Source of the DNA: an uncultured bacterium
GTDB lineage: Bacteria > Verrucomicrobiota > Kiritimatiellia > CAIKKV01 > CALHGX01
Direction of reading: 5' to 3'
NCBI GenBank assembly: GCA_938031185.1
Contig: CALHGX010000009.1
Span: 106,837 to 170,836, forward strand
DNA: 64,000 nt
The position numbers and the translations under genes were made by a program. Positions 27,792 through 59,262 of the stretch are shown in pieces. How positions within the stretch are numbered: the stretch's first letter is position 1; every line of letters begins with the position of its first letter. The notes beneath the pieces are model-generated. The model had not been told where the DNA came from and made no database searches. It saw only the letters and a program-made list of their open reading frames with translations.

Positions 27792-30700
27792 AGCGAGCGC
27801 ATCGTTCGCAGCGCTTGCGCGTGTTGTTCAGGTTCGCCGGTAATTGTCAACTGGCGAATGCCCATTCCAAGCAGCGGCGTCAAATCTCGCACCGGGGCCC
27901 CTCTCATGAGCAACACCCGCAGGGGCATCCCCTTCAAAGGCCGCACATCCGATACCTGGGTGTTCTCGATGTCCAAATGCCACAGGGGCATTCCTTCCAA
28001 CACTGATATATCCCGCACGGGTATGTGCGCCAGAGAAAGCTTCTCGATCGCCATCCCTTTCAATACCTTCACACTGTCGAAACTCACCTTCGTTCCCGAC
28101 AGGTCCAGCGTCTTGAGCGGCATGCCTGCCAGCACCGAAATATCCCGCACCGCCGTGCCGTTGAGGTCAAGATGCTCCAAGGGCATGCCCCGCAACGGCG
28201 ACAAATCAACCACGGGGGTGCGAGCCAAGTTCAACGACGTCATCGGTTTGCCGGCCAGCACAGACAGATCTTTGAACTGCGTGTCGCTCAAGTCAGCCCG
28301 CCGCAGAGGCATTCGGCGCAGCATCTGAAAATCATGCGTCTTGCATCCCGCCAGATACAACCCCTCCAATGGCATATCCCGAAGCACATTCAAATCGCGA
28401 AACGCCGTCTGCCGCGCGCTGAACTCGCGCAGTTTCATCCCCGCCAGAAAAGTGAAATCTGTGACTTTCAAGCCGTCCAGTTGAAGTTTGGCCAAGTCCT
28501 TCCCGCGCAACACACTCAAATCCCGCAACGCCGTCCGCCCCACATTGAGCTCACGCGCCGAAACAGGGGCCAGCAGGCTGGCATCTCGGACATCGCTGCC
28601 TTCCAGCGAAAGCATTTCGAGCTTGAGTCCCTGCAGCGCGTTCCAATCATCTGCCGTGCAACCGTTCAACGAGAAATGCGTCAGCGACGGAAACTGGCGG
28701 GCCGCCGCCAGATTGCGAATGGAGCAGTTCGAAAGGTGAAGGTGGCGAAGATCAAGTCCCGCCAAGTGGCTCAGGTCTATGCGGGCCGGATCACGGCCCG
28801 GCACGGAAATGTGCAGCCTTTTCAACGTGGCGGCCTTGGCCAGAGGGGTCAGCTTCCCAATGACGGCCGATTGAATGGTCAATGCATGCACACGACCGTC
28901 AGGCGTCGCCTCGCCCCATACGTCGCTTGGCGTCAGCCCCGGATTCTCGGCACAAAGCGCTTCTACCAGCCGCTCCGCGACCGTCGCCTCGCCGTCCGCT
29001 CCGTCGCCCTGCAGTTGAACGTGCGCGGAGTTTGGCGCAAGAGACGCAATCCGCCCCGCCGCCGCTTCCAAGGCCTGCAACACAAGTTCCGCTTCCTCGG
29101 CAAACCGGCTGTGGCTGTATGTCTTCCGATACCGCGCGACCGCCGCCTTGATTTCCCGGGCTGTGGCCGCGTCCATCTCCGCCAGGGATGCCGCTCGAAC
29201 CCATTCGCGCAAGTCGGCCGACATGGTCTCCACCCGGGCCATTCGCGCAAGCTCCTCCAAAGCGGTCCGGGCTTTTTCGTCTAAATCTTTACTGGATCTT
29301 CGTGCCATTTCTTCCTGCAGCGCCCCAGCCAGCATAGTGCCCGCCTGCTCGAACAGCTTCGCAGCCTGATCCGTACGCCCCATGCGGGCCAGTGTCAGTC
29401 CAGCCGCCAATGCCGCTTCGGGCGCAGGGGAATCCATAAGCCGCGCCAGTTTGTCTCCTGGCGACAAATCGGCGACATCAAGCCATATTTCGGCGCTGGC
29501 ATCCGGTATTTGCCCGCACAGTTTTCGTCCCTCCACCCGCCTGATGATCAAGTTCAGCGGCGGCCCCTGCACCCGCTGCACCCTAACCATGCGGTTCGTC
29601 AACGCAAGAAACACTTCCATGATCCTGTCATCGGGATGTGATGCGCCTTCGATCAGCTTCAGAACAGCCTTCAGGTCTTCCGCCGTTTCGCCGCTCGCAT
29701 CCTGCGCCGCACTCAAGGCATTGCGAGCTGCCGCCAGATCGCCATCCAGGGCCATGGCGGCAGCCTTACGCAACGCCGATTCCCATGCGCGGTTTTGACC
29801 CTCGCGCTGACTGCTTTCCTCGCTCCGTTCCCGAAGCGCCGCCGCCCGTGTTTTCCGATCAGCCGCGCTGTCGTCCGCGCCCGGGCCCTGATATGTTTCC
29901 AGCCGAGTGGCAGCCGCAGCCCACTCACCCCGTTCGGTTAGCCGTTCAACCTCGTCATTGAGCTCTGCCAGCGCGGCCTGCCGTTTCCGGTCCGCCGCCT
30001 CCTTGAGCCGATCCGCCGCTTCCAGCAACGCCGGCGGCGCCTGCTCCGCCCGCAGGCGTGTCATCAACGACTCCAGCGCCTCAACCGCCCGGTCATGTTC
30101 CTCCGCCGCTCCATCCAGCCGCCGCCGGATTTCATCGATCTGCGCGCGTATGGAAGCGTCGCTTGAAACAAGCGCTTCCGGTTCGGTCCCGGCTGGCTCG
30201 GGCGGGGGCTGTCCTTGCGTCGCCGCTGTCGGTAAGCCAGCCGCCCCTTTCATCTCTGAAGAAGCGATCGGCGCCGCCCCATCAGCATGTCTTCCCCAGC
30301 GTTCCCACACCTGCCATGCCGCGGCGATTGCCGCCAACAAGGCGACGACCGTCGCCATGATCCGCTTGGCGGTCCGTCCCGGCTGCAGACGGCGCATCAA
30401 GGCCGCCCGGCGGCGGCACCGCGCCATGGTGCTGGCCCCTTCCGGAAGGGGCGCCTCTAGTGGCAGATGTCCTGAGCGAACTTGCTGAACGTCCACGATC
30501 ACGGCATGCCAGTCCGCCGGCCGCGCCGTCCGATCTTTGGCCAGCATCCGCTCAAGCAGGCAGGCCATGCCTAAAGACACCCCCGGCGCCGCCTCCATCA
30601 CGTCGGGCACCTGCGCCTTCACCTGCCCCTCAAGCGCCTCCGCATCCGAACGATCCTGGAACATCCGCCGGCCGGTCAGCATGTGATACAAGGTCGCGCC

Positions 30701-31357
30701 CAAGGAATAGATGTCGCTGCGCTGGTCCAAGTCTTGTGCGCCTTCGCACTGCTCCGGCGACATGTAGCTCGGCGTGCCGCAGATTTCCTCGACGCCTTCC
30801 TCCATGCCCTTGGTCTCGCCGACCCGCGAAATGCCGAGGTCGGCCACCTTGATGGTGCCGTCTTGATCCACCATGATGTTGTCCGGCTTGATATCGCAGT
30901 GAATCAAGCGCGCCGTCCGCCAGGCGTACTCAAGGGCCTGCGCCACGGATTCCGCCACGGCCAATGCGTCCGCTTCTCCAATGCGCCCCTTGCGGCGGAT
31001 CCATTCCCCCACGCTGTACCCGGCCACGTATTCCATCACAAAAAAGCACGTGCCGTCTTGCTCGCACGCGTCATAGACCTGCACCAGGCATGGGTGCTTG
31101 AGTTTGGCGGCCACCCGAGCCTCTTCAAACAGACGCCGCACCTCGTCGGGCCGCCGCGCAAACTCCGGCAGGAGCTGCTTGAGCGCCACGATCCGATCGA
31201 GCGAAAGCTGGCGGGCCTTCCACACCACAGCCATGCCGCCCTGCCCGACGCGCTCGAGGATTTCGAATCCTCGCAGCGAAATGTGCGCCTCTCCCACCGT
31301 GGGTTCTCCCGGCAAATCAATACCAATCCACCGCGGCGCTCTCGCGCGGCGCCGCAT
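27752..31357 (-). CDS. Hanks-type Ser/Thr protein kinase with a TM segment, a long Ala/Glu/Arg-rich coiled-coil and a C-terminal leucine-rich-repeat domain
   Basis: N-terminal kinase subdomains (VALK, HCDIKPDNIMV, DLGIS, GTPSYMSPE), then hydrophobic IMATVVALLAAIAAAW, then about 15 tandem ~22-aa LRRs with a recurring LxGMPLxxLDLxxTxVxD motif. 1201 aa. Confidence 0.9.
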   Translation of the reverse strand: MRRRARAPRWIGIDLPGEPTVGEAHISLRGFEILERVGQGGMAVVWKARQLSLDRIVALKQLLPEFARRPDEVRRLFEEARVAAKLKHPCLVQVYDACEQDGTCFFVMEYVAGYSVGEWIRRKGRIGEADALAVAESVAQALEYAWRTARLIHCDIKPDNIMVDQDGTIKVADLGISRVGETKGMEEGVEEICGTPSYMSPEQCEGAQDLDQRSDIYSLGATLYHMLTGRRMFQDRSDAEALEGQVKAQVPDVMEAAPGVSLGMACLLERMLAKDRTARPADWHAVIVDVQQVRSGHLPLEAPLPEGASTMARCRRRAALMRRLQPGRTAKRIMATVVALLAAIAAAWQVWERWGRHADGAAPIASSEMKGAAGLPTAATQGQPPPEPAGTEPEALVSSDASIRAQIDEIRRRLDGAAEEHDRAVEALESLMTRLRAEQAPPALLEAADRLKEAADRKRQAALAELNDEVERLTERGEWAAAATRLETYQGPGADDSAADRKTRAAALRERSEESSQREGQNRAWESALRKAAAMALDGDLAAARNALSAAQDASGETAEDLKAVLKLIEGASHPDDRIMEVFLALTNRMVRVQRVQGPPLNLIIRRVEGRKLCGQIPDASAEIWLDVADLSPGDKLARLMDSPAPEAALAAGLTLARMGRTDQAAKLFEQAGTMLAGALQEEMARRSSKDLDEKARTALEELARMARVETMSADLREWVRAASLAEMDAATAREIKAAVARYRKTYSHSRFAEEAELVLQALEAAAGRIASLAPNSAHVQLQGDGADGEATVAERLVEALCAENPGLTPSDVWGEATPDGRVHALTIQSAVIGKLTPLAKAATLKRLHISVPGRDPARIDLSHLAGLDLRHLHLSNCSIRNLAAARQFPSLTHFSLNGCTADDWNALQGLKLEMLSLEGSDVRDASLLAPVSARELNVGRTALRDLSVLRGKDLAKLQLDGLKVTDFTFLAGMKLREFSARQTAFRDLNVLRDMPLEGLYLAGCKTHDFQMLRRMPLRRADLSDTQFKDLSVLAGKPMTSLNLARTPVVDLSPLRGMPLEHLDLNGTAVRDISVLAGMPLKTLDLSGTKVSFDSVKVLKGMAIEKLSLAHIPVRDISVLEGMPLWHLDIENTQVSDVRPLKGMPLRVLLMRGAPVRDLTPLLGMGIRQLTITGEPEQHAQALRTMRSLQSCNGMTWWPGR

Positions 31358-33746: not shown

Positions 33747-34881
33747 CTAAGACGCTTTCGCCTTCGCGGCGGCCGCCTTCGCGTGCTTCAGGTACGCCAG
33801 AACGAAACGGTCGAGTTTGCCATCGAGTACCGCTTGCACATTGGAGGTTTCCTCGTCGGTTCGATGATCCTTGACCATTGTATAGGGTTGAAGCACATAG
33901 GAGCGAATCTGATTGCCCCAAGCAATCTCGCCTTTTTCGCCGTAAAAACGTTCCATGTCTTTCCGTTGGCGGTCGAGTTCCATTTCATACAGTCGGGCCA
34001 TCAGCAGCTTCATGGCCTTGGCGCGGTTGTTGTGCTGCGAGCGCTCGGCTTGACACGAAACCACTATGCCCGTCGGCAAATGCGTAATGCGCACCGCGGA
34101 ATCGGTCTTGTTGACGTGCTGCCCGCCCGCGCCGCTCGACCGATAGGTATCCACCCGCAAGTCGGCTTCATTAATCTCGACGCGAATATCCTCGGTGAGT
34201 TCGGCCACCACATCCAGTGACGCGAACGATGTGTGCCGTCGCTTGTTGGCGTCGAACGGGCTGATGCGCACAAGCCGGTGCACCCCCCGCTCGGACTTGA
34301 AGAGGCCAAAGGCCATCGGCCCTCGAACCGCCAGAGTGGCGCTCTTGATGCCGGCTTCATCGCCCGGCTGCACATCAAGCATCTCCACATTGAAATGACG
34401 GTCTTCGGCGTAGCGCCGAAACATCCGAAGCAGCATCGCCGCCCAATCGCAGGATTCCGTACCGCCGGCGCCGGCATGCAGGGTCAGATAGGCGTCATTC
34501 GGGTCGAGCCGCCCATCAAGCAGGGTTTGCATCTCCAGGGCTTCCCGCGCTTCCTCGGCGCGCTGAAGTTCCCGACTCGCGTCTTCCAGGGCCTGCGTCC
34601 GATGCCGGCCTTCCGGCTCCGCTTCCGCCAGCTCGATCAGCACGCCGGCCTCTTCCACGGCGCGTTCGATATCGCCGAAGGGCGCTAGCAGCCCCTTGAT
34701 CTGATTGGCCTGCTCCAGAATGGCCTTCGCCTTGTTCTGGTCGTTCCAGAAGCCCGGCAACGCGATCTGCTGTTCAAGATCATCCAAGACCTGCCGCCGC
34801 GAGGCGACGTCAAAGATAACCTCTCATTTCTTGAACCCGTTGGCGTGCCGTCTCCAAACGGGCTTTTACTTCCTCAATCAT
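33747..34881 (-). CDS. prfB: Peptide chain release factor 2, expressed by programmed +1 ribosomal frameshift
   Basis: Frame 0 from the ATG at 34881 encodes [23 protein letters not shown] and then TGA (34812-34810). The +1 frame continues DVASRRQVLDDLEQQIALPGFWNDQ... into the body of RF2 (SPFDANKRRHTSFASLDV, GAGGQHVNKTDSAVRITHLP). Confidence 0.9.
34809..34827 (-). other. prfB +1 frameshift site: SD-like AGAGGU, 3-nt spacer, CUU UGA C
   Basis: Minus-strand sequence ATG AGA GGT TAT CTT TGA C is the canonical autoregulatory RF2 recoding cassette. Confidence 0.85.
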
Positions 34882-47299: not shown

Positions 47300-48352
47300 T
47301 TACGCTCCTCCGCGGCCCATCACCCGCTCACGCCACTGCAAGGCCGGCTTTTCAACCAAAATGTACATCATGCATCCGAACAGCACCGTCAACAGGAAAT
47401 AGTAAGTGTAGCCCCACCAGCCCCTCATCAACGGGTTTGTCGTAATGTACATCACATGGTTGTACAGATAAATGGAGTAGCTGGCGGCGCCGAGGATCGC
47501 CAATGGCTCAAACAGCGTGCGCCAGCCTTTGCTCCAGTTCCGATCCAACGCGATCACCATCAAACTCAGCAGGCCTCCGAGAACAATATCATACACTTTG
47601 TGGCTCCGGACATGCAGACGCGAGAAGAACGGCGACCATAGCGACAGGCCAACCACCACCGCCAGCCAGGCCATCACCACCCACCACCGTCGGAACCAGC
47701 CGCGCAGTGTGTCGCGATACCGGGCCAGCAGCATGCCCCAGATAACCAACGGCACATAGGACAGCACGCTGTAAGTCAGAATCTGTGGATGAGGCACATA
47801 TCGCCGCCCATACACGTTGACCCACCAGCTCAAAACGGCGGCCGCCAACAGCGTGAGCCACGGACGCTTTCGCGCTGCCAGGAACAGCAACGGCATTACC
47901 GCATAGAACTGCACCTGCGGCCCCATGAACCACAACACCCCCGACACGGTATAGAAAGTGGACGGATGCAGATTGTGGACAAACACCATGTGCGTCACGA
48001 CGTCCACGATACCGGCGCTGGTTCGAATCCCCCCGAGGTTCACCTTGGCCTCAAGGAAACACCATACCGCGATCGCCACATAGTAGGCCGGCAGGATGCG
48101 CCACAAACGGCTGGCGAGGTAGCGGCGATAGTCTACCCCTCCCGCGGCGGCCGCCTTAGCCAGCGAGAGCGCCATGCAGTACCCCGACAGCACAAAAAAC
48201 ACTTCCACCCCGACGTACCCAAGCCGAATCAATCGGTTGAACTCAAACCCGTGCCAGCCCCAGGAGGGCAGGCCGATGTACGTGGAGAGATGATACAGGG
48301 TCACCACCACGATGGCCCAGGCCCGCGTCAAATCAATGTGTAGCGATCGCAT
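47300..48352 (-). CDS. Acyltransferase family 3 (AT3/OafA-like) integral membrane O-acyltransferase
   Basis: Internal start MRSLHIDLTRAWAIVVVTLYHL... (the exact start is ~48350-48353; hand line-reading and frame arithmetic disagree by 1 nt). About 10 TM helices. The upstream 194 codons of ORF 47300..48934 look non-coding. Confidence 0.75.
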   Translation of the reverse strand: MRSLHIDLTRAWAIVVVTLYHLSTYIGLPSWGWHGFEFNRLIRLGYVGVEVFFVLSGYCMALSLAKAAAAGGVDYRRYLASRLWRILPAYYVAIAVWCFLEAKVNLGGIRTSAGIVDVVTHMVFVHNLHPSTFYTVSGVLWFMGPQVQFYAVMPLLFLAARKRPWLTLLAAAVLSWWVNVYGRRYVPHPQILTYSVLSYVPLVIWGMLLARYRDTLRGWFRRWWVVMAWLAVVVGLSLWSPFFSRLHVRSHKVYDIVLGGLLSLMVIALDRNWSKGWRTLFEPLAILGAASYSIYLYNHVMYITTNPLMRGWWGYTYYFLLTVLFGCMMYILVEKPALQWRERVMGRGGA

Positions 48353-48644
48353 ATGCCCTCCTGACGGCGCTGTCGGTTCGGGGATCTCAAGCGACGACCG
48401 TGCCAACTGTGGTGCTCCATCCGTATTTGCGCTCTCGGCGCAGAGTCGAGCCGCTTCAGGAAGCGTTTTCGGCCGCTCACAGAGCCTCCCACAAGAACAA
48501 GGCGTCTTGACCCGCATACTCCAGAATACACATCGCCAGCCAATTGCATTTCGCCGTATGCGCTCTCGTGGCTTCCCGCTGGTCCTCCATGTTTTGGTCT
48601 CGCCAACAACGCCGACAATCTGAAACAATCCAGGAGAGGCAGTC

Positions 48645-49949
48645 ATGCGGCGCATTCCGAATTGGCGGAACGGACGGAACATTACTCCGCAACGCGTGGG
48701 ATTTGTTTCCACACGTTTTGCGGGCACCGACGGCGTTTCCCTCGAGTCCGCCAAATGGGCGGAAGTGCTGCGCCAGGACTCCCATGATTGCTTCTGGTAC
48801 GCTGGACGCCATGATCGCGCCGATGCCGAAAGCTTCTGCGTTCCCGAGGCTTTTTTCGGGCATCCCGAAAATGTCTGGATCAACGAACGGATCTGGGGGT
48901 GTACGGCCCGGTCGCCGCTGGTGACGAGGCGCATCCTCGAAATGGCCGACTATCTCAAGCACACATTGTACGAGTTCGTTGCCTGGTTCGACCCTACCCT
49001 GTTGGTGTTCGAGAATGTCCTTTCCATCCCGATGCACGTCCCCCTGGGCATCGCCGCTACGCATTTTCTTTCCGAAACCCATCTGCCGGCTATTGCTCAC
49101 CATCACGATTTTTTCTGGGAACGCACCCGTTTTTCTGTCAACGGCGTAAACGATTTCCTCGACATGGCGTTCCCGCCCCGCGACCGCGATTTGCGCCATG
49201 TGGTCATCAACCAGACGGCGCAGGAAGATCTCGCCCACCGGCGTGGCGTCGCCTCCCATCTCATTCCAAATGTGCTCGATTTCGATCATCCGCCCGAACC
49301 CATGGACGACTATGCACGGGACGCTCGCGCGGCGATCGGCTTGGATCCGCAGGACATAATGATCCTGCAGCCGACGCGCGTGGTCCCTCGCAAGGGCATC
49401 GAATGGGCCATCCAACTCGTGCGGATGCTCGGCAATCCCCGCTACAAACTTGTGGTTTCACATGAATCCGGAGACGAAGGCGACCTGTACGCTGAAGCCC
49501 TGCTCCATATGGCCCGGCAATCCGGGGTTGACCTCCGTTTCTTTTCGGCTCGCGTGGCTGGCGCTCGAGGGATCGCCCGTGACGGCTCCAAAATCTACAG
49601 TCTGGGCGATATCTATCGCCACGCGGCCCTGGTCACCTATCCCAGTCTTTACGAGGGCTTCGGCAATGCCTTTCTCGAAGCTGTCTACTACAAAGTACCG
49701 GTGCTGGTGAACCGTTACGCCATCTTCGGGCGGGATATTGAGCCTAAAGGCTTCCGCTGCCCCATCATGGAGGGGTTTCTCACGGAACAGGTCGTGGCGG
49801 AAGTGCGTCGTGTGCTGGAAGACGAACCCTATCGCCGCCAGATGGTGGAGCACAATTATTGCGTTGCGGCCCGGCACTACGGTCACGCCGAACTTCGACG
49901 ATGTCTCCGCTCGCTGCTGCTCGAAATGGAGGGCACCCAGTCCGTATGA
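48645..49949 (+). CDS. GT4 family (retaining, group 1) glycosyltransferase
   Basis: C-terminal YPSLYEGFGNAFLEAV EX7E motif with a GT-B fold layout. 434 aa. Confidence 0.8.
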   Translation: MRRIPNWRNGRNITPQRVGFVSTRFAGTDGVSLESAKWAEVLRQDSHDCFWYAGRHDRADAESFCVPEAFFGHPENVWINERIWGCTARSPLVTRRILEMADYLKHTLYEFVAWFDPTLLVFENVLSIPMHVPLGIAATHFLSETHLPAIAHHHDFFWERTRFSVNGVNDFLDMAFPPRDRDLRHVVINQTAQEDLAHRRGVASHLIPNVLDFDHPPEPMDDYARDARAAIGLDPQDIMILQPTRVVPRKGIEWAIQLVRMLGNPRYKLVVSHESGDEGDLYAEALLHMARQSGVDLRFFSARVAGARGIARDGSKIYSLGDIYRHAALVTYPSLYEGFGNAFLEAVYYKVPVLVNRYAIFGRDIEPKGFRCPIMEGFLTEQVVAEVRRVLEDEPYRRQMVEHNYCVAARHYGHAELRRCLRSLLLEMEGTQSV

Positions 49950-51667
49950 ATCCATGGCTGCATCGGCTGTCCACCACCAATGTGCCTGCCCGGCTCGCCC
50001 GCCTGTATGGCAACCGCGCCAACTCCTGCCTGCGGCGCATGACCATGCTGGTCGGCCGTTATGGTCTGGGCGCAGAACCGCCGCCTGCGCCAGCACAACC
50101 CCGATTCAGCGAGCGGGATGCCATCCTGATCGTGTACGGCGACCACGTTCAGGCCCCCCCAGAAAAGCCGCTCGCCGTCCTCGCGCGTTTCCTGGAACAA
50201 CATGCCGCCCCCTTCAACATCCTGCACCTGCTGCCCTTCTTCCCTTATTCCTCCGACGACGGCTTCTCCGTGATTCACTTCCGAACAGTTCGACCGGACC
50301 TCGGAACGTGGTCCGATGTGCAACGGCTGGCCGCCCCCCGCCTCTTAATGGTGGACCTCGTGCTCAATCATTTGTCCTCTCGCAGCAACTGGTTTAATGA
50401 TTTCCTCGGAGATATTGCTCCGGCACGCGACTATATTCTTACGGTGCCGCCCGAGACCGACTTGCATTCCGTTTTCCGCCCCCGCACCCATCCCCTGTTG
50501 ACCCCCTTCCGGACGGCCACGGGGGCCATACGCCATGTGTGGACCACGTTCAGCCCGGATCAGGTCGACCTCGACTACCGTAATCCGGATGTTCTTTTCG
50601 AGATGCTGGACATCCTGCTTTTCTACGTTTCCATGGGCGCCCGCTGGATACGGCTGGACGCCGTGGCCTACCTTTGGAAAACCATTGGCACAGATTGTCT
50701 CCATCGCCCCCAAACGCATGAGATCGTCAAACTGATGCGCGACCTCCTTTCCCTCGTGGCGCCAGACACCCTTCTGATCACCGAAACCAACGTCCCTCAC
50801 AAGGACAACGTTTCTTACTTTGGAGAGGGGGATGAGGCCCATCTGGTCTATCAGTTCCCGTTGCCGCCCTTGCTTTTGCTGGCCTTTGCCCAAGGTGACG
50901 CGTCGCGCTTGAGTCAGTGGGTCGCCGCGCTGCAACCGCCGCCCGCGGGTTGCACCTTTCTCAACTTTACGGCCTCGCATGACGGCATCGGCTTGCAGCC
51001 TCTTCGCGGTCTGGCCGGCGACGCCGAACGCACGGCCCTCCTTGATCATGTGCGCGCCGCCGGGGGATGCATCTCGCTCACGCGCGAACCCGATGGGATC
51101 GAAACGCCTTATGAGGCCAACATCACATGGTTCGCGGCGCTGCGAAGCCATGGCCACGGCTCCGAAGAGGCCTCTCTCAAGCGGTTCCTTTGCTCACAAG
51201 CAATTTGCTTCGCCCTTCAAGGCGTACCGGCCGTGTACTTCGGCGCATGGGTGGCCGCCGACAACGATGCGAACGGCATGAAGACCTCCGGCCACGCTCG
51301 AGCCATCAACCGCCATAAGTGGCGAGAAGAGGAACTGGAAACGCTGCTGACCGATCCCGACTCCACTACGAGCGGGGCGCTCCACGGCATCAATCGCCTC
51401 CTTCTGGCACGGGCCTCTCACGACGCCTTCCATCCTGAAGCTCAACAAGAGGTGCTCCATTTGGACCGGCGCGTATTCGCCGTCGCCAGAACTTCCAAGG
51501 CCGGAGATCGCGTGCTCTGTCTGCACAACGTGACCGGCGAAACCGTGCGAATAGACCTGCCCCAAGGGCAAACGGGAGTTCGCAACCTGATTGCCGACGG
51601 CTATGCCCCCTCGCGGGAAGTGCGCCTAAATGCCTACGAGGCCGCGTGGCTCGCGCTTGGAGGCTGA
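49946..51667 (+). CDS. GH13 sucrose-phosphorylase-like glycoside phosphorylase (GH13_18-type)
   Basis: ATG at 49946 overlaps the upstream TGA (ATGA). LPFFPYSSDDGFSVIHFRTV, RLLMVDLVLNHLS, WIRLDAVAYLWK (catalytic Asp), ITETNVPH (Glu), FTASHDGIG. Confidence 0.85.
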   Translation: MNPWLHRLSTTNVPARLARLYGNRANSCLRRMTMLVGRYGLGAEPPPAPAQPRFSERDAILIVYGDHVQAPPEKPLAVLARFLEQHAAPFNILHLLPFFPYSSDDGFSVIHFRTVRPDLGTWSDVQRLAAPRLLMVDLVLNHLSSRSNWFNDFLGDIAPARDYILTVPPETDLHSVFRPRTHPLLTPFRTATGAIRHVWTTFSPDQVDLDYRNPDVLFEMLDILLFYVSMGARWIRLDAVAYLWKTIGTDCLHRPQTHEIVKLMRDLLSLVAPDTLLITETNVPHKDNVSYFGEGDEAHLVYQFPLPPLLLLAFAQGDASRLSQWVAALQPPPAGCTFLNFTASHDGIGLQPLRGLAGDAERTALLDHVRAAGGCISLTREPDGIETPYEANITWFAALRSHGHGSEEASLKRFLCSQAICFALQGVPAVYFGAWVAADNDANGMKTSGHARAINRHKWREEELETLLTDPDSTTSGALHGINRLLLARASHDAFHPEAQQEVLHLDRRVFAVARTSKAGDRVLCLHNVTGETVRIDLPQGQTGVRNLIADGYAPSREVRLNAYEAAWLALGG

Positions 51668-52770
51668 CGCCCAAACGCCATATTCTCTTTGAATCGTGCC
51701 GCTTCCAATGTCTGCAGGAACCGGGCGGCGCTCTCTGCCAGCGAATACTCCGAGGCCACGAGACGCTGGGCCGCCAATCCCATGGCCCGGCGGCGGAACG
51801 GATCATGGATCAGCGCCGCCAAAGCCTCAGCCAACGCCAAACTGTTGCCGGGCTCCGTCAGCAACGCCGTCTCGCCCTCGCGGCAATACTCGGGTATGCC
51901 GCCGACCCGCGAAGCCACCAAAGGCAGTCCGGCAGCGGCGCCCTCGAGAATCACGTATCCCGACCCTTCGCTGCGGGAAGGTAGCGCCACCAGGTCCGAG
52001 GCTCGAAGCCACGGCCTCACGTCATCCTGGAAACCCGCAAAATCCACATGACGTCTCACGCCCAAATCGGACGCCATCGCCTTGTAGTCCACCCGACTGG
52101 CGTCGCCGACCAGCAAAAGCCGCGGGCCTTCTCCGCAACGCTGGAGCACGATGCGCCAGGCTTCCAGCAAAACATCGGTCCCCTTGATGGGGGCTAGGCG
52201 CCCCACGTAAACCACTCGACAACGGCTTGAAGGCAAGCCTTGCGCTTCTGGTCCATCCGCGTAGCGTTCCACACGGATGCCATGCCGCAAGACAACCACC
52301 TGCTGCTCCCGCAAGTATCCACCCCCCGCTCGAAGCATATCTTGGCGCACGGCTTCAGACGGAACGAGAACGCCGTCGATCAGGTGACGAACGGTGAGCA
52401 GGTTGATCCGACTCGGCCGCAAATCCCCCAAGGCGCCTCGCCGTACCCACAAAGAACACCGCCGGCCGGCACGCGCCAGTGCCGCCACTCGAACTTCCTT
52501 GTAGTTCTTGGCGCAAACCGCCTGCACGCCATGCCGCCGCATCCACGCCGCAAGCCGAATTGCCGCCACAACTTCGAATCCTGCCACGATCCGAAGCGGC
52601 AACGTGGGGAAGCCCATGGCTCGTGCCTGACAAAGGAATCCGCTCTGCCTTCGCCCGCCCATGGCCGCCCAGTGTCCCGCGCGAACCAATTCGGCGCCCA
52701 TATTGAGCATCCAGCGTTCCACGCCATAGACGCCGACGGCGGCGTTCATGTTCAGGAACAAAACGCGCAT
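51634..52770 (-). CDS. GT4 family glycosyltransferase (group 1)
   Basis: Internal start MRVLFLNMNAAVG.... C-terminal PSRSEGSGYVILEGAAAGLPLVASRVGGIPE. Confidence 0.8.
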   Translation of the reverse strand: MRVLFLNMNAAVGVYGVERWMLNMGAELVRAGHWAAMGGRRQSGFLCQARAMGFPTLPLRIVAGFEVVAAIRLAAWMRRHGVQAVCAKNYKEVRVAALARAGRRCSLWVRRGALGDLRPSRINLLTVRHLIDGVLVPSEAVRQDMLRAGGGYLREQQVVVLRHGIRVERYADGPEAQGLPSSRCRVVYVGRLAPIKGTDVLLEAWRIVLQRCGEGPRLLLVGDASRVDYKAMASDLGVRRHVDFAGFQDDVRPWLRASDLVALPSRSEGSGYVILEGAAAGLPLVASRVGGIPEYCREGETALLTEPGNSLALAEALAALIHDPFRRRAMGLAAQRLVASEYSLAESAARFLQTLEAARFKENMAFGRQPPSASHAAS

Positions 52771-52850
52771 CACCCACCCCCCTTGCCGGCGATATTCGCA
52801 AGGACAACCAGGTGCGCTTCGACCGCCGTCGTCCACGGCCGTGCCGGTGC

Positions 52851-53405
52851 TCAACACGGCAAGTCGGATGAAAGGACTTCATCCAACAACGGCAGCGCCG
52901 CGTCCTTACGGGAAAGAATCGGTTGCGAGAGCGGCCACACGATGCCGATGCGCGGATCGGACCACCGCACCCCCCGCTCGCTCGCCGGGTCATAGTAGTC
53001 GGAGCACTTGTAGGCGACGTCCGCGGCGTCGCTCAACACACAAAACCCGTGAGCAAACCCCGCCGGAATGAAAAGCTGGCAGCGGTTTTCCTCCGACAAC
53101 ACTCGTCCCGTCCATCGTCCGAACGTGGGAGAATCCCGGCGCAGATCCACGGCTACATCGAAAATTTCGCCCCAGATCACTGAGACCAATTTGGCCTGTG
53201 CCCGCTGCGCCTGATAGTGCAGCCCGCGCAGCACACCTCGGCGCGAATGCGAATAATTATCCTGCACAAAGCGACAGGTGAGCCCCAGTTGCCGGTACCT
53301 TTCCTCGTGAAACGTCTCCATGAACAAGCCACGCTCATCCTCGAAAACATCAGGCCGAAACAACCACACATCCGGCAAGTCCGTCGCTTCTCGCGTAAGG
53401 GGCAT
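52851..53405 (-). CDS. rmlC: dTDP-4-dehydrorhamnose 3,5-epimerase
   Basis: FEDERGLFMETF...GVLRGLHYQ...KLVSVIWGEIFDVAVDLRRDSPTFGRW. Confidence 0.9.
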   Translation of the reverse strand: MPLTREATDLPDVWLFRPDVFEDERGLFMETFHEERYRQLGLTCRFVQDNYSHSRRGVLRGLHYQAQRAQAKLVSVIWGEIFDVAVDLRRDSPTFGRWTGRVLSEENRCQLFIPAGFAHGFCVLSDAADVAYKCSDYYDPASERGVRWSDPRIGIVWPLSQPILSRKDAALPLLDEVLSSDLPC

Positions 53406-53411
53406 GGCTAT

Positions 53412-54284
53412 TCAAATCTCCTCGCGGGCCATCCGCTGCAAATAGGCGCCGTACTCGCTCCGGGCCATGGCCGCCCCCATCCGTTCCAACTCCTCTTTGC
53501 CGACATACCCCAAACGATAGGCCAGTTCCTCCACACAGGCGATCTTCAGACCCTGCCGCTGCTCAATGGTTTGCACGAAGTTCGCCGCCTGCAACAAGGA
53601 CTCGTGTGTCCCCGTGTCAAACCACGCTATTCCCCGTCCGATCCGCTCAACCCGCAATGCGCCCCTTCTCAAATAGTCCAGGTTCAAATCCGTGATCTCC
53701 AGTTCACCCCGTGCCGAAGGCTTCAACTTGGCGGCCACATCCGCCACTCCGCTGTCGTAAAAGTAGAGGCCCGGCACTGCGTAACGCGACCGGGGTTTTT
53801 GCGGCTTCTCTTCGATGCTCACCGCGCGGCCCGACGCATCGAACTGCACCACCCCGTAACGCTCCGGGTCCGTCACCGGATAGCCGAAAATCAAACCGCC
53901 TTCTCGCAATCGGCCCGCCTCGCGCAGCAGTTCGCGCAGCCCCTGCCCATAGAAGATGTTGTCCCCCAAAATCAACCCGACGGGTTCCGAGCCAATGAAG
54001 TCGCGCCCGATAAGAAAAGCCTGCGCCAACCCCTCCGGTCGCGGCTGCTCGGCATATTGAAACCGCAAACCCCATTGTTCGCCTCCGCCCAGCAACCGCC
54101 GAAACAGCGGCAGGTCCTCCGGAGTGGAAATGACCAGGATGTCCCGTATGCCCGCCAGCATGAGCACGGACAACGGATAGTACACCATCGGCTTGTCATA
54201 AACCGGCAACAACTGCTTGCTCACCACACGTGTGATCGGATGCAAACGCGTGCCGGCGCCACCCGCCAGAATGATCCCTTTCAT
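53412..54284 (-). CDS. rmlA: Glucose-1-phosphate thymidylyltransferase
   Basis: [33 protein letters not shown]... is a near-canonical RmlA N-terminus. Confidence 0.95.
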
Positions 54285-54299
54285 CCCCCTCGCCCTTTC

Positions 54300-55349
54300 T
54301 CAACCGTAGTGCTCTTTGATCCACTGCCGGTACGCGCCCGTGCGAACCTGTTCCACCCAGTCGTTCCGCGTCCGATACCACTCCACCGTTTTCCTCAATC
54401 CGCTGGCGAACGACTCTCGCGGACGCCACCCGAGTTCCGTTTCGATCCGCGTCGTGTCGATCGCGTAACGCCGGTCATGGCCGGGTCTGTCTTTCACAAA
54501 CGTGATTAGCGCACGCCGGGGCCCGGATGGCAAAGGGGCGCACACTTCGTCCACCAAATCGCAAATCATCTCGACCACCCGCAGGTTCTCCATCTCGTTG
54601 CGGCCGCCAATATTGTATGTCCGGCCCTCCTGCCCCTTGCGCAGCACAAGCCACAGCGCTTCGCAATGATCACGCACATAAAGCCAGTCTCGAACATGCC
54701 GCCCATCCCCGTAAACCGGAAGCGATCGTCCCTCCATGGCGTTCAATATCATGAGCGGCACCAACTTCTCGGGGAACTGATACGGCCCATAATTGTTGGA
54801 GCAGTTCGAGAGCGTGACCGGCAGACCATATGTGGCGTGATAAGCTCGCACCAAATGGTCAGACGCGGCTTTCGATGCCGAATAGGGACTGTTCGGCCGA
54901 TATGGCGTGTCTTCCGTAAAAAGTCCCGTCGGCCCCAGCGAGCCGAACACTTCATCCGTGCTCACGTGATGAAAACGGCCAATGCGATCCCGGCGTTCAC
55001 GAACCAGTTCAAGCAACGTGTACGCGCCCACGATATTCGTCTGAATGAATTGCTGCGGCCGCACAATCGAACGATCCACATGCGACTCCGCGGCCAAATG
55101 GCATACGGCATCCACCTGTTGCTCATCCATCAGCGCCCCCATGGCCTCACGGTCGCTGATGTCCGCCTTCACAAACAGGTACCGGTCGCCGTGCCGGATG
55201 GCTACGTCAGACAAACTCAACGGGTTGGCCGCATAGGTCAGGCAATCGGCATTGACGATCCGCCCCGCAAAGTCGCTCTCGTCCAGCAGGTATCGAATGA
55301 AGTTCACCCCGATAAACCCGCATCCCCCCGTCACTAGAAGCGTCTTCAT
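54300..55349 (-). CDS. rmlB: dTDP-glucose 4,6-dehydratase
   Basis: MKTLLVTGGCGFIGVNF..., YSASKAASDHLVRAY, extended SDR. Confidence 0.95.
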   Translation of the reverse strand: MKTLLVTGGCGFIGVNFIRYLLDESDFAGRIVNADCLTYAANPLSLSDVAIRHGDRYLFVKADISDREAMGALMDEQQVDAVCHLAAESHVDRSIVRPQQFIQTNIVGAYTLLELVRERRDRIGRFHHVSTDEVFGSLGPTGLFTEDTPYRPNSPYSASKAASDHLVRAYHATYGLPVTLSNCSNNYGPYQFPEKLVPLMILNAMEGRSLPVYGDGRHVRDWLYVRDHCEALWLVLRKGQEGRTYNIGGRNEMENLRVVEMICDLVDEVCAPLPSGPRRALITFVKDRPGHDRRYAIDTTRIETELGWRPRESFASGLRKTVEWYRTRNDWVEQVRTGAYRQWIKEHYG

Positions 55350-55400
55350 CGCGGTCTACTTTCAGCAGCGAAATATGGCCTTGTCAACCACGCATTTGAC

Positions 55401-57245
55401 TTGGCAGAAAATGACGCTTTACCTGTCTTGCCGACTTGCGAACCGGCTCTGTATACTGGCCGCGAAATGCCCGTGGCAACATTGGCGCTCCTCGGCGGCC
55501 TCATCGGCCTTGCATGGTTTGGGGCCGGCCTCGTCCCCGGCGCGGTGGCGCCCATGGCCGCACTTTGGTGGGCTTGCGCCGGCTGGCTGCACCTGCGACA
55601 ATCACCACCCACCGAAAAGGCCCCGCCGCCCTTTCCCCGCCCATCGCTCTTCGCTACGCTATGGGTGTTCTACCTTTTCTTTATGCTGTGCCCTCTGCCG
55701 TATTTTTTCTCGGCATGGATGGGCCCCCTCCGCCATAGCCAGCATATGGCGGTGCGCGACGCCCTCGCGGATGCCGCCCGCCTGGGCTGGCTGAACGAGA
55801 GCCAACCCTGGTTCGCCCTGACAAGGAACCGCGCCGGCACTTTTCGCGTGCTATTGCTGACGCTGGCCGCCTTCGGCGCCGGCACCCTCGTTCGCGGGCT
55901 CTCCTCGTCATGGCGTCGGCGTGTGATTCGCGTGCTGCTGCTGTTGGGCGCAGCCGTCGGCATATTGGGGTACTTGGGCCAATGGGTTTTCAAGCAGGGA
56001 TTCACGCTCTGGTGGTATTTCCCCGTTCCGCCAATCCTGCCCGGCCCGGTGGGCGGATTCATCAACCGCAATCACTTCGGCGGATTTCTCGCCCTCCTGT
56101 GCCCGATGGCCATTGGCCTTATGGCGGATGACTGGGCCGCCCGTCGGCGCGGAGCGGTGCTGCTGGATGTGGCGTGCCTGGGGGCCATGGTCTACGCGCT
56201 GGCATGGTCGCTTTCCCGCGGCGCTTGGCTGGCATTTGCAGGCGGCGTCCTTGTCGCCCTTTTCCGGCTCGAGCGCCGTCGTGTCGCACCGCTTCTAGCC
56301 ATCATCAGCGTGCTCGTCTTGCTCGGGCTGACGCTGGTCCGGTTGCCCGCCTTCCCCGTACTGCGTCAGCGTATTGAGACCCTCCGAGCCCCGTTGGATT
56401 CCACCAGCGCGGAAAAGCGCCTGAACGCGTGGCGCGAGATCCCTCGCATTTGGCTCGATTATCCCGTCGTCGGCATCGGTCCCAACGCCCTGCGCATGAT
56501 ATATCCTCAATACCGCTGGACCACCTCCGGTCAGTGGCTCGTTCACGCCGAAAACCACTACATCGAATGGGCCGTGGACACGGGGCTGGTTGGTACGATC
56601 GTGCTCGCCCTCATGGGGATCAGCCTGGCTCTGACCATCCGCCATGCGGGCGGGCCGCCTCTGGCCAATCGAGGCGTTGTGGCCGGCAGCGCCGGAGCCG
56701 TGACGGTGGCCGCCTTGCATGCCGCCGTGGACTTCGCCCTGTTGGTGCCGCTTTATGCCACAGCGCTGGCCATCCTGATCGCGGTACGGCTTCCTCCGCT
56801 CAGAGCGACGACCGATCGTCCATGGACCGCGGGACGAACCAGCGCCATCCCCTCCCTGGCGGCTTTGCTGATCGCCGTGACACTCCATTTTCGGCCGGGA
56901 GGCGCGGTTCATCAGATGGATGCCCACGAATTCCTCCAGCAGGCCGATCCACCAGCCTTACGGACGGCGCTCGTTTGGGCCCCCACTTCATGGCACGCAT
57001 GGTACTACCTCGGAAGGGCCGCCTGCGAAGAGGCCGTGCGGCGAAACGATATCCGCCTTTCCGCCTTCGGCGAGGAATGCGTCACGCAAGCCGCCGCGTA
57101 CGATCCGAACAACTATCGCCTGTGGCATGAACTGGGGATCCTGCGCATGAATATGGGCCTCCGCCGTCAAGCCAGCGAAGCATTCCGCCGGGCCCAAAGC
57201 CTTCGCCCATGGATGACGCCCCCCCCGGAATGGAAGGACAACTGA
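55401..57245 (+). CDS. O-antigen ligase (Wzy_C/WaaL-like) family membrane protein with a C-terminal TPR-like region
   Basis: Polytopic protein with an O-antigen ligase-type loop (WSLSRGAWLA..., NAWRE, GIGPNA, HAENHYIEW). The C-terminal ~120 aa are soluble and helical. Confidence 0.75.
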   Translation: MAENDALPVLPTCEPALYTGREMPVATLALLGGLIGLAWFGAGLVPGAVAPMAALWWACAGWLHLRQSPPTEKAPPPFPRPSLFATLWVFYLFFMLCPLPYFFSAWMGPLRHSQHMAVRDALADAARLGWLNESQPWFALTRNRAGTFRVLLLTLAAFGAGTLVRGLSSSWRRRVIRVLLLLGAAVGILGYLGQWVFKQGFTLWWYFPVPPILPGPVGGFINRNHFGGFLALLCPMAIGLMADDWAARRRGAVLLDVACLGAMVYALAWSLSRGAWLAFAGGVLVALFRLERRRVAPLLAIISVLVLLGLTLVRLPAFPVLRQRIETLRAPLDSTSAEKRLNAWREIPRIWLDYPVVGIGPNALRMIYPQYRWTTSGQWLVHAENHYIEWAVDTGLVGTIVLALMGISLALTIRHAGGPPLANRGVVAGSAGAVTVAALHAAVDFALLVPLYATALAILIAVRLPPLRATTDRPWTAGRTSAIPSLAALLIAVTLHFRPGGAVHQMDAHEFLQQADPPALRTALVWAPTSWHAWYYLGRAACEEAVRRNDIRLSAFGEECVTQAAAYDPNNYRLWHELGILRMNMGLRRQASEAFRRAQSLRPWMTPPPEWKDN

Positions 57246-57246
57246 C

Positions 57247-57597
57247 GTGGCCGACGCCAACCACTTGTTGATCGGGGCCCTCGGGCCTTTCCTCCTGGCG
57301 CTGTTGCTCTACACGCTGCGAGGCGGCCGGGCGCCGCTCTGGCTGCTTATCGCCGCGCCGCTGTTGATGGCCCTCGGCGCACTATGGGCCGTTGCCCCCG
57401 ACCTCCCTCGTCTGTTCGGGTATCACGACCTGTACATGCGCTGGGCGTTCGACCCGCGCATGAACATCTTTTTCTGGCACTACAGCATTGATCAAAGGGA
57501 AACGGATCCCCCCTGGTATGCCGCCGGGTTGGTGCTCATGGCCGCCGCCCTGCTGGCCGCCGCATGGAATGAGCTTCGCCGGGAGGAACATGGCTGA
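57247..57597 (+). CDS. Small hypothetical membrane protein (116 aa)
   Basis: GTG start immediately after the ligase stop. Three predicted TM helices. Confidence 0.45.
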   Translation: MADANHLLIGALGPFLLALLLYTLRGGRAPLWLLIAAPLLMALGALWAVAPDLPRLFGYHDLYMRWAFDPRMNIFFWHYSIDQRETDPPWYAAGLVLMAAALLAAAWNELRREEHG

Positions 57598-57989
57598 TGG
57601 CCCACCCTTCTCTCCATGCGGCTGCCGGCATGGCCATCGGCATGGCCATCGGCGGCGTTCGCTGTTGGCAAACCCGCCGGTGCAAACGTTCTTTGGCCCA
57701 TCGCATGGGCGCCTGGTTGCTCTGGTCCTGGGCCGGCGCGTTTTTCGCGCTCATCCCCGGCCTGCTTCGGCTTCTCGGATGGCCGCAAAGCTGGGCCGAA
57801 GGCTGGTGGATGAATATCTTCGTCGGATACCCGCTGCTGAACCAAACGGTTCGGCACGGCGGCGCCCTGATCGGAGGCGCGCTGTTGGGGCTGTGCCTGA
57901 CCCTTCAGTATCTGCTGGTCTTGGCCGCGCTGTTTGGGACCCGTCGTCGCCGTCGGGCTCTCACGACAGCAGCCGGATGTATTCGCTGA
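57597..57989 (+). CDS. Small hypothetical membrane protein (130 aa)
   Basis: Start overlaps the upstream stop (TGATG). 3-4 predicted TM helices. Confidence 0.45.
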   Translation: MAHPSLHAAAGMAIGMAIGGVRCWQTRRCKRSLAHRMGAWLLWSWAGAFFALIPGLLRLLGWPQSWAEGWWMNIFVGYPLLNQTVRHGGALIGGALLGLCLTLQYLLVLAALFGTRRRRRALTTAAGCIR

Positions 57990-59262
57990 CGGTGCGCGCC
58001 AGGGCGCCCCTGCGCGAACGCACCACTTCGTGCGCGCGCGCCCCGTATTCCCAACGGCGAACAGGATCCAGCAGCAGCTCGCGAAGGGCCCCTTCGAGTT
58101 CAGCCGTTGAGCGAACCTGCACAAGCGCTTTGGCCTCAAGAAAATCGCGCTCCACATCGCGAAAATTGTCGAGATGGGGGCCTACCACGATCGGCTTCCC
58201 GAACACGGCCGGCTCGATGATGTTCTGTCCCCCTCGGCAGGTCAGGCTCTTCCCCACAAAGATCACCGTGGCCTTGGCATAGAGATTCCGTAGTTCCCCA
58301 GTGGTGTCCAGCAGCAGCGCGTCCGGAGTTTGGGATGGCGGCTCGCCGGACCGCAATGCGCTGCGCCGCACATACGCAATCCCGCTCCCGCGGAACAACG
58401 CCTCCACCTCGGCCGCTCGTTCGACGTGCCGGGGCGCCAAGACCAGTCTCAAACCGGGCGCCTCCGGCCGCAAGCGTTTAAACGCTTCCAGCAGCGCCGC
58501 CTCTTCGCCGCGCCATGTGGAACCGCCCAGCAGAATGGGATCGGTCGGAGCGAATCCCGCCCTCCTGAAGACGGCTTCCGCATGAGTGGAAGCCTCCGGC
58601 GTATAGCTCACGATGTCATACTTGGCATTGCCCGTCACACACACACGCGCCGGCGGCGCGCCGATCGCCAGCAGGCGTTCGCGGTCCGAGTCTCCCTGCA
58701 CGCAAAACGAATTCATCTCCTCCAGCACCCGTCGAATGAAAAAACGAATGCGGCGGTAGCCGCGAAAAGAGCGATCGGACACCCGCCCGTTCATGAGCCC
58801 CACCATGATGCCCCTGCGGCGCGCCTCCCGAATCAGATTCGGCCAGATCTCGCATTCGGTCAGGACAATCGCAGCCGGCTCGATCACCGACAACACCCGA
58901 CGGACCGACGGCACGAAGTCCACGGGGAAGTAGATCAGCGCATCCTCGGGATGGAGAAAGCCTTCCGCCATCCGGCGCGCGGTGGACGTGGTCACACTGA
59001 GCACAAATGTCCGTTCCGGCTGTCGCAGACGCCATTCCTCCATGAAATGTCGGGCAATCAGCGTTTCTCCCACGCTGACGGCGTGCACCCATATTCGGCT
59101 GCGGCGCCGTCGCAACCGTTCCAGCGTCTGCCGGTCATACAAACCCACGCGCTGCATGAAATGCTGCCGGTACCCGCCGCGGCGCGCCATACGCCAAAGA
59201 AACTTCGGCAGCACCAGCAAATAAGCCGCCGTAAACAGCGCGTTGTATGCCACCCAAATCAT
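57961..59262 (-). CDS. waaA: 3-deoxy-D-manno-octulosonic acid (Kdo) transferase
   Basis: WVHAVSVGETLIARHFMEEW..., LVLAPRHVER, and GGQNIIEPAVFGKPIVVGPHLDNF. Confidence 0.9.
   Translation of the reverse strand: MIWVAYNALFTAAYLLVLPKFLWRMARRGGYRQHFMQRVGLYDRQTLERLRRRRSRIWVHAVSVGETLIARHFMEEWRLRQPERTFVLSVTTSTARRMAEGFLHPEDALIYFPVDFVPSVRRVLSVIEPAAIVLTECEIWPNLIREARRRGIMVGLMNGRVSDRSFRGYRRIRFFIRRVLEEMNSFCVQGDSDRERLLAIGAPPARVCVTGNAKYDIVSYTPEASTHAEAVFRRAGFAPTDPILLGGSTWRGEEAALLEAFKRLRPEAPGLRLVLAPRHVERAAEVEALFRGSGIAYVRRSALRSGEPPSQTPDALLLDTTGELRNLYAKATVIFVGKSLTCRGGQNIIEPAVFGKPIVVGPHLDNFRDVERDFLEAKALVQVRSTAELEGALRELLLDPVRRWEYGARAHEVVRSRRGALARTVSEYIRLLS

Follow-up and report, generated by a model that had tools for sequence, protein, structure and literature searches.

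Why should a gene for a retaining glycosyltransferase of family 4 (GT4) be joined to one for a sucrose-phosphorylase-like enzyme of glycoside hydrolase family 13 (GH13), and on which compounds would the two enzymes act? This question is raised by a gene pair at positions 48645-51667 of a 64,000-nucleotide stretch of DNA (the window) from an uncultured bacterium of the Kiritimatiellia (Verrucomicrobiota; contig CALHGX010000009.1, positions 106,837 to 170,836). Family matches, signature residues, a structural model and the gene neighborhoods of relatives point to one translationally coupled operon that would handle compatible solutes of the glucosylglycerate type, with turnover or recycling as its main direction, a reading to which we give an even chance of being correct. 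By every sequence criterion tested, the GH13 protein is a glucosylglycerate phosphorylase (GGaP), while its GT4 partner is a homologue, not a certified equivalog, of the mannosylglucosylglycerate synthase MggS. The pair would link mannosylglucosylglycerate (MGG), glucosylglycerate (GG), glucose-1-phosphate and glycerate.

The GT4 gene (48645-49949, + strand) encodes a retaining enzyme of 434 amino acids, and the GH13 gene (49946-51667, + strand) a GH13_18 phosphorylase of the YcjM-like GGaP clade, 573 amino acids long when counted from the ATG at 49946. The two genes share the tetranucleotide ATGA at 49946-49949 (+ strand), in which the GH13 start codon (49946-49948) overlaps the GT4 stop codon TGA (49947-49949). 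The initial annotation had placed both reading frames and their overlap at these positions, and an independent gene caller chose both of these start codons on L002, a public contig of identical sequence. Two other in-frame starts, a TTG at 49859 and an ATG at 49901, are less favored than the ATG at 49946, since close homologues align with the product of the latter from residue 1 onward and the gene caller agrees. A Shine-Dalgarno sequence, AGGAG, is located at 48632-48636, 8 nt upstream of the GT4 ATG, and a GGAGG is found 13 nt upstream of the GH13 ATG, within the GT4 coding sequence. A lone ATGA overlap is frequent in bacterial operons, but here the close junction recurs in relatives of the pair. 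When one genome per species was scanned with a GT4 alignment (pattern HHHDF[YF]W), at least 539 relatives were identified, the best 80 of which were examined; these 80 loci were picked by GT4 similarity alone, and their neighboring genes were found within 10 kb by clustering of open reading frames (ORFs) and by tblastn. They originate from Verrucomicrobiota, Kiritimatiellia, Planctomycetota, Victivallales, Omnitrophota and Balneolales, and from some Desulfobacterota and Gammaproteobacteria. In 67 of the 80 species loci, mostly from bacteria of the Planctomycetes-Verrucomicrobia-Chlamydiae (PVC) group, the GT4 gene is directly followed, on its own strand, by a GH13 gene. Relative to the GT4 stop, the in-frame GH13 start is at -4 in 19 of these 67 paired loci, and the -4 overlap also occurs in L083, L084 and L086; of the 67, 3 others have the start at -1 and 22 have it 0-10 nt beyond the stop. 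Tight coupling is thus a conserved state, with an overlap or a gap no longer than 10 nt in 44 of the 67 paired loci, about two thirds.

The GH13 protein was already assigned by the initial annotation to the sucrose-phosphorylase family (GH13_18) as a phosphorylase with a substrate other than sucrose, and this assignment holds. Its clade was determined by bit-score contrast and signature residues, with YcjM of Escherichia coli as the characterized GGaP for comparison. The protein is 41% identical to YcjM (427 bits, 521 aligned amino acids), which is annotated in RefSeq as glucosylglycerate phosphorylase, whereas no solved sucrose, glucosylglycerol or sucrose-6F-phosphate phosphorylase or amylosucrase exceeds 146 bits, and none of these specificities stands out from the others in score. 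Pfam recognizes the alpha-amylase catalytic domain only. Residue conservation was assessed in an alignment of 61 sequences (the window protein, YcjM and 59 homologues from GT4-linked loci), and all positions given below are on the + strand. Both motifs quoted in the initial annotation, RLDAVAYLWK and ITETNVPH, are present. The first contains the catalytic nucleophile Asp238 (50657-50659, within RLDAV), an Asp in 60 of the 61 sequences including YcjM, and solved GH13_18 phosphorylases have RLDA at the aligned positions. The second, residues 278-285, contains the TETN motif Thr279-Glu280-Thr281-Asn282 (50780-50791; conserved in 59-60/61) with the acid/base Glu280, and aligns against 'peih' or 'pev..h' in the solved structures. 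The transition-state stabilizer pair of GH13, His345-Asp346 in SHDG (50978-50983), is conserved to the same extent (59-60/61). Loop A carries Pro388-Tyr389-Glu390 (51107-51115), with a Glu that 60 of the 61 sequences share, YcjM among them; this 'pye' aligns with the 'iyq' of 7xdr, 7qqj and 7qqi, which are solved glucosylglycerol and sucrose phosphorylases, and the complete loop, ETPYEAN, does not match the sucrose phosphorylase motif N(L/V)D(I/L/V)YQ. Altogether, D238, E280, D346, H142, H345, R236, R456, the loop-B RPR and the loop-A Tyr-Glu are each found in 59-61 of the 61 sequences. The pattern that would have refuted the initial annotation is not seen: there is no grouping with amylosucrases, and the protein retains the loop-B RPR and the loop-A Tyr, which align with the sucrose-phosphorylase loops that form the phosphate site. 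In the review of Franceus and Desmet (PMC7178133), (T/S)ETN on strand 5 and Glu in place of Gln in loop A are given as GGaP signatures, sucrose and glucosylglycerol phosphorylases having E(I/V)H instead of TETN and YQ in loop A. The assignment as a GGaP thus follows from the greater closeness to YcjM together with TETN and the loop-A Glu, and glucosylglycerate was indeed one of the two specificities that had been named for the locus at the outset.

An N-terminal extension had also been remarked upon as a feature of this protein. It exists, about 58 residues preceding the first barrel strand (residues 1-58; 49946-50119, + strand), and it is common to the whole clade rather than peculiar to the window protein: a pattern R..LYG ... 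GRYG runs through the clade, with LYG and GRYG conserved in the alignment of the 59 GT4-linked homologues and YcjM, and the YcjM extension is similar in length and contains LDEIYG.

The GT4 protein has a single specific family match, to the NCBIfam model of MggS (NF041101; E = 1.6e-62, 211.7 bits), and the alignment is full length and collinear (residues 18-424 on model positions 3-430 of 431). Pfam assigns Glycos_transf_1. A further Pfam match, 'GT4-conflict', was weak and generic and was dismissed as a sign of a defense role. Homologues of the protein are 53-75% identical across phyla, and some of the close ones are named mannosylglucosylglycerate synthase by JGI. Two motifs stand out. The N-terminal (acceptor) domain contains H152-H153-H154-D155-F156-F157-W158-E159-R160 (49098-49124, + strand), which is specific to the family: in an alignment of 24 GT4 sequences (A1), eight of the nine positions of HHHDF[YF]WER are invariant and position 157 is Y or F. 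The second is the EX7E motif E337-E345 in EGFGNAFLE (49653-49679, + strand), the catalytic/donor-binding signature of retaining GT4 enzymes; A1 shows no variation at either glutamate, nor at R245 and K250 of TRVVPRKG, the phosphate-binding Arg/Lys pair.

An AlphaFold2 model of the GT4 protein adopts a GT-B fold (pLDDT 83.7). A fold search with it retrieved TreT as the best match (E = 1.8e-14, TM 0.63-0.68), followed by BshA, WaaG, MshA, sucrose-phosphate synthase and PimA, while a sequence search of the PDB returned nothing at E <= 0.001, so that only the fold search gave matches. The confident model thus most resembles soluble GT4 enzymes acting on small molecules, with the reversible TreT in first place. 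TreT and sucrose synthase are GT4 enzymes whose reactions are reversible; as disaccharide synthases with a soluble small-molecule acceptor they resemble the enzyme proposed here, although TreT shares only 16% sequence identity with the GT4 protein and the likeness is one of fold, which makes no statement on substrates.

The neighborhoods of the relatives tie the pair to genes of MGG synthesis. A gpgS gene (glucosyl-3-phosphoglycerate synthase; NF010496 equivalog, 394 bits versus a cut-off of 262) lies within 10 kb in 45 of the 80 loci. An MggA-like protein of 478 amino acids is encoded in 49; it has no family model, its length is that given in the Rhodopirellula baltica paper, and it is weakly similar to the GT4 protein, as MggA is to MggS. 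A HAD hydrolase of about 300 amino acids, of the kind shown in R. baltica to be the MGG-phosphate phosphatase MggB, is encoded in 32 loci. Finally, a Peptidase_M20-like gene (about 390 amino acids; e.g. L019:8589-9764, - strand) is situated between gpgS and the GT4 gene in 48 loci and belongs to the conserved gene set of the mannosylglucosylglycerate cluster. Two layouts recur. In the one seen in Verrucomicrobiota and Kiritimatiellia, the HAD, mggA, gpgS and M20 genes occupy one strand, and GT4 followed by GH13 runs divergently from them. The other, in Planctomycetota, consists of mggA, HAD, GT4 and GH13 in the same direction with short gaps, the HAD gene being directly upstream of GT4. Two Pirellulaceae loci have, directly upstream of GT4, ORFs of 845-850 amino acids in which an MggA-like transferase is fused with an MggB-like HAD protein (L065:5981-8518 and L066:7419-9971).

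The nearest relatives, whose GT4 proteins are 71% identical to that of the window, have a gene for an MscS-type mechanosensitive channel directly upstream of GT4 on the same strand, an arrangement also seen in L003 and L010. A gene for glycerate kinase lies downstream of GH13 and converges on it in L086 and L009 (mscS and glycerate kinase neighbors of the nearest relatives at L083:8687-9787, L086:8865-9962 and L086:13019-14134). The closest relative of all (75% identity) has the GT4-GH13 pair alone, in another gene context, and the genes flanking the window pair show no synteny with any of the 80 reference loci. The pair behaves as a mobile two-gene unit. Adjacency of GT4 and GH13 is missing in 13 of the 80 loci, 4 of which have too little downstream sequence for a judgment, and no consistent substitute gene was found downstream of GT4 in the loci without GH13; one of them has a phosphomannomutase-like gene there, recognized by eye from a sequence motif. 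In Roseibacillus (L077 and L082), the GT4 gene stands beside an M20-like gene and gpgS, with no mggA and no GH13 gene within 10 kb; the GT4 family can thus occur without the phosphorylase.

Taken together, these data suggest the following scheme. From its homology and signature residues, the GH13 enzyme would interconvert 2-O-alpha-glucosyl-D-glycerate (GG) plus phosphate and alpha-glucose-1-phosphate plus D-glycerate. From family homology and the gene neighborhoods of its relatives, the GT4 enzyme would be a retaining Leloir transferase of the MggS type that interconverts GG plus a nucleoside diphosphate (NDP)-sugar, most likely GDP-mannose, and MGG plus NDP. The initial annotation had proposed a cycle in which a single glucoside is synthesized and phosphorolyzed. 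This part of it does not stand: the GT4 protein is not homologous to the maker of the glucoside that the phosphorylase splits, and MggS uses GG as its acceptor. Because the only specific match of the GT4 protein is MggS, the pair would act on MGG and GG in succession instead of cycling a single compound.

As for the physiological direction, we lean toward a main role in the turnover or recycling of MGG and GG over one in synthesis, and rate recycling at about even odds. In such recycling the GT4 enzyme, working in reverse as sucrose synthase and TreT can, would strip off the mannose, and the phosphorylase would then recover the glucose as glucose-1-phosphate. The mannose of MGG sits on O2 of the glucose, a hydroxyl that, judging from the GH13 mechanism, is read by the -1 subsite of the phosphorylase; since this subsite could not accept an O2-substituted glucose, removal of mannose would have to precede phosphorolysis. 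Several observations argue for this direction. In most genomes the complete phosphorylating route is already encoded alongside, often on the other strand, and in the majority of loci from Verrucomicrobiota and Kiritimatiellia the pair is transcribed away from the biosynthetic genes. The mechanosensitive channel gene of the nearest relatives and the glycerate kinase gene of L086 and L009 point the same way, and the literature treats GGaP as a catabolic sink or recycling step for GG (PMC7178133). A more specific variant, which we regard as possible and put forward tentatively, is an energy-conserving salvage in which MGG plus GDP would give GDP-mannose plus GG, and GG plus phosphate would give glucose-1-phosphate plus glycerate. 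If so, both glycosidic bonds of MGG would be recovered as activated sugars instead of being hydrolyzed, and the 'MggS' family of the PVC type, never seen to be synthetically active, would have a real function.

A number of points weigh against this picture. The GT4 protein misses the equivalog cut-off of NF041101, with 211.7 bits against 640. The window itself lacks, as judged by tblastn over its 64 kb, gpgS, mggA, the HAD/mggB gene, mscS and glycerate kinase, so the link of the window pair to MGG would come through its relatives; the M20-like gene is absent as well, and the sole tblastn signal is the weak similarity of GT4 to MggA. The co-directional planctomycete layout with its short gaps fits co-expression for synthesis, and the Roseibacillus combination of gpgS and GT4, where neither mggA nor GH13 is present, fits a synthetic MggS. 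From the layout of the other planctomycete (Pirellulaceae) loci, the R. baltica genes probably belong to the family of the window pair. The MggS homologue of R. baltica was inactive both in extracts and as a recombinant protein, and its 'sucrose phosphorylase' reportedly cleaves sucrose, an activity unexpected of a strict GGaP (PMC3736172).

The alternative that survives best retains the same enzymes and substrates and reverses the direction: the GGaP would make GG from glucose-1-phosphate and D-glycerate, and the GT4 enzyme would mannosylate it with GDP-mannose, thereby pulling the equilibrium. This corresponds to the non-phosphorylating MGG route proposed for R. baltica, and we consider it a possibility to be kept in view while doubting that it prevails. 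In vitro, a Thermotoga homologue of MggS synthesizes MGG when given GDP-mannose and GG, and Cunha et al. proposed exactly such a route for an operon of an MggS homologue and a phosphorylase (PMC3736172). GGaP is reversible, with a Michaelis constant for glycerate of 1-5 mM. To this can be added the planctomycete and Roseibacillus arrangements described above and the isolation of the pair in the window, where it could be a self-sufficient pathway. Synthesis by this route would, however, require free D-glycerate and a favorable ratio of glucose-1-phosphate to phosphate; the gpgS, mggA, mggB route is already next door in most genomes, often divergent; the glycerate kinase and mscS neighbors of the nearest relatives point to disposal; and no activity of this kind was obtained with the R. 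baltica homologues (PMC3736172).

Less probable is that the GH13 protein is a GGaP and the GT4 enzyme uses another donor or acceptor, so that the product would be glucosyl-glucosylglycerate, another GG derivative or an unrelated small molecule, with no MGG involved; we consider this unlikely. The distance of the GT4 protein from validated MggS would be accommodated, as would the inactivity of the R. baltica homologue with GDP-mannose and GG (PMC3736172) and the unusual conservation of a family that keeps its own invariant HHHDF[YF]WER across phyla. Against it stand the strong neighborhood link to mggA and mggB as well as gpgS, and the lack of any other family model that matches the GT4 protein specifically.

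Sucrose metabolism, with a true sucrose phosphorylase and a sucrose-forming GT4 enzyme, is highly improbable. The best NCBIfam name of the GH13 protein is indeed sucrose phosphorylase (TIGR03852), at 164.7 bits and well short of the cut-off of 334.4, and the R. baltica neighbor enzyme is reported to phosphorolyze sucrose (PMC3736172). Nevertheless, the GH13 protein has YE and ETN as in strict GGaPs instead of the YQ (loop A) and EIH (strand 5) of sucrose phosphorylase, the score with YcjM is three times that with any sucrose phosphorylase, and the GT4 protein has no match to models of sucrose synthase or sucrose-phosphate synthase. Equally improbable is that the pair is part of the envelope polysaccharide cluster which it adjoins in the window: despite the physical closeness, the pair is convergent with that cluster, none of the genes flanking the pair in the window is syntenic with it in any of the 80 loci, and the pair travels as a two-gene unit, otherwise with gpgS, mggA and mggB.

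How does the pair compare with known systems? The GGaPs (EC 2.4.1.352) for which the review cites characterization are E. coli YcjM and the enzymes of Allomeiothermus silvanus and Spirochaeta thermophila (Franceus 2017 and Mukherjee 2018, as cited in PMC7178133). The window enzyme shares with them the GH13_18 fold, TETN, the loop-A Glu, the catalytic and -1 subsite residues and a LYG extension of about 50 amino acids, in addition to its identity with YcjM. It differs from YcjM in context, since the latter is part of a ycj-type sugar-catabolic operon with an ATP-binding cassette (ABC) transporter and the window GH13 gene is coupled to an MggS-like GT4 gene. With the MggS enzymes of Thermotoga maritima and Petrotoga mobilis (NF041101; Fernandes 2010, as cited in PMC3736172), the GT4 protein has in common the collinear full-length homology and the retaining GT4 character with EX7E, but it reaches only a third of the equivalog cut-off score. 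In Petrotoga, the partner of MggS is a glucosylglycerate synthase (GgS) and not a phosphorylase (PMC3736172).

The closest precedent is the operon-like group of an mggS homologue, mggB (rb12347) and spasE in Rhodopirellula baltica (Cunha et al. 2013, PMC3736172). There, too, an MggS-homologous GT4 gene adjoins a sucrose-phosphorylase-like GH13 gene in a PVC bacterium, and the order HAD, GT4, GH13 recurs in the planctomycete loci of the present set. In contrast, the window has neither an MggB-type HAD phosphatase nor any other MGG gene in its 64 kb, and orthology with the R. baltica genes is surmised from the Pirellulaceae loci. The GT4-GGaP pair is thus a known arrangement, already described in 2013 as the R. 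baltica operon, and not a new kind of system. On the phosphorylase side, it was the clustering of sucrose-phosphorylase-like genes with glucosylglycerate genes that led to the discovery of strict GGaPs in 2017, and GGaP is regarded as the only known or proposed sink for glucosylglycerate in many producers (PMC7178133). A study of Prochlorococcus likewise presents the GGaP step as recycling to glucose-1-phosphate and phosphoglycerate.

GG and MGG are stress solutes whose breakdown is poorly known. In 2013 the genes for MGG were seen as extremely rare, with about twelve homologues. In the loci gathered here the GT4-GGaP pair is common, and its usual neighbors are gpgS, mggA and an mggB-like gene. 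It is found across Verrucomicrobiota, Kiritimatiellia, Planctomycetota and Lentisphaerota, as well as in some members of the Desulfobacterota and Gammaproteobacteria. The module is far more widespread than in the 2013 description, which points to a much wider role of MGG-type solutes. For annotation, glucosylglycerate phosphorylase and MggS-like transferase can replace 'alpha-amylase' or 'sugar phosphorylase' and 'GT4 family protein', and the MggS homologue of the PVC type is marked out as an enzyme to characterize.

Upstream of the GT4 gene lies a divergent intergenic region of 292 nt (48353-48644), presumed to contain the promoter. It includes a perfect 7-bp inverted repeat, CGCATAC/GTATGCG (48513-48519 and 48556-48562), with arms 36 nt apart and located about 85 nt upstream of the GT4 start, which could be an operator or a chance match. 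A promoter and terminator scan found no sigma-70-like promoter, and terminators no commoner than by chance; Rfam at gathering thresholds and a tRNA scan gave nothing in the window, and a permissive Rfam search of the intergenic region upstream of GT4 gave no match. On the other side of this region is a divergent acyltransferase_3 gene (47300-48352, - strand, 350 amino acids), delimited by its Acyl_transf_3 domain and the gene caller. A longer ORF of 544 amino acids at 47300-48934 (- strand) results from a start codon farther upstream, and its apparent 290-nt overlap with the start of the GT4 gene is an artefact.

Downstream, a second GT4 gene, of the exopolysaccharide/lipopolysaccharide type (51634-52770, - strand), converges on the GH13 gene with a 3' overlap of 34 nt. 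The initial annotation had pointed it out in connection with the pair; its convergence at 51634 is real, whereas its relevance is not borne out, as it belongs to the envelope polysaccharide cluster (51634-59262) and is not conserved beside the pair. This cluster comprises the second GT4 gene, rmlC, rmlA, rmlB, a gene for an O-antigen-ligase-like Wzy_C protein and a 3-deoxy-D-manno-octulosonic acid (Kdo) transferase gene, and as a whole it is not found beside the pair elsewhere. Farther away, a release factor 2 gene (33747-34815, - strand) encodes PCRF and RF-1 domains, the match beginning at model position 7, and the prfB +1 frameshift motif CTTTGAC is located just upstream of that match at 34809-34815; the gene probably uses the usual programmed frameshift. 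Finally, positions 27752-31357 (- strand) encode a protein of 1200 amino acids that carries a Ser/Thr protein kinase domain at its N-terminus and, close to the C-terminus, leucine-rich repeats.

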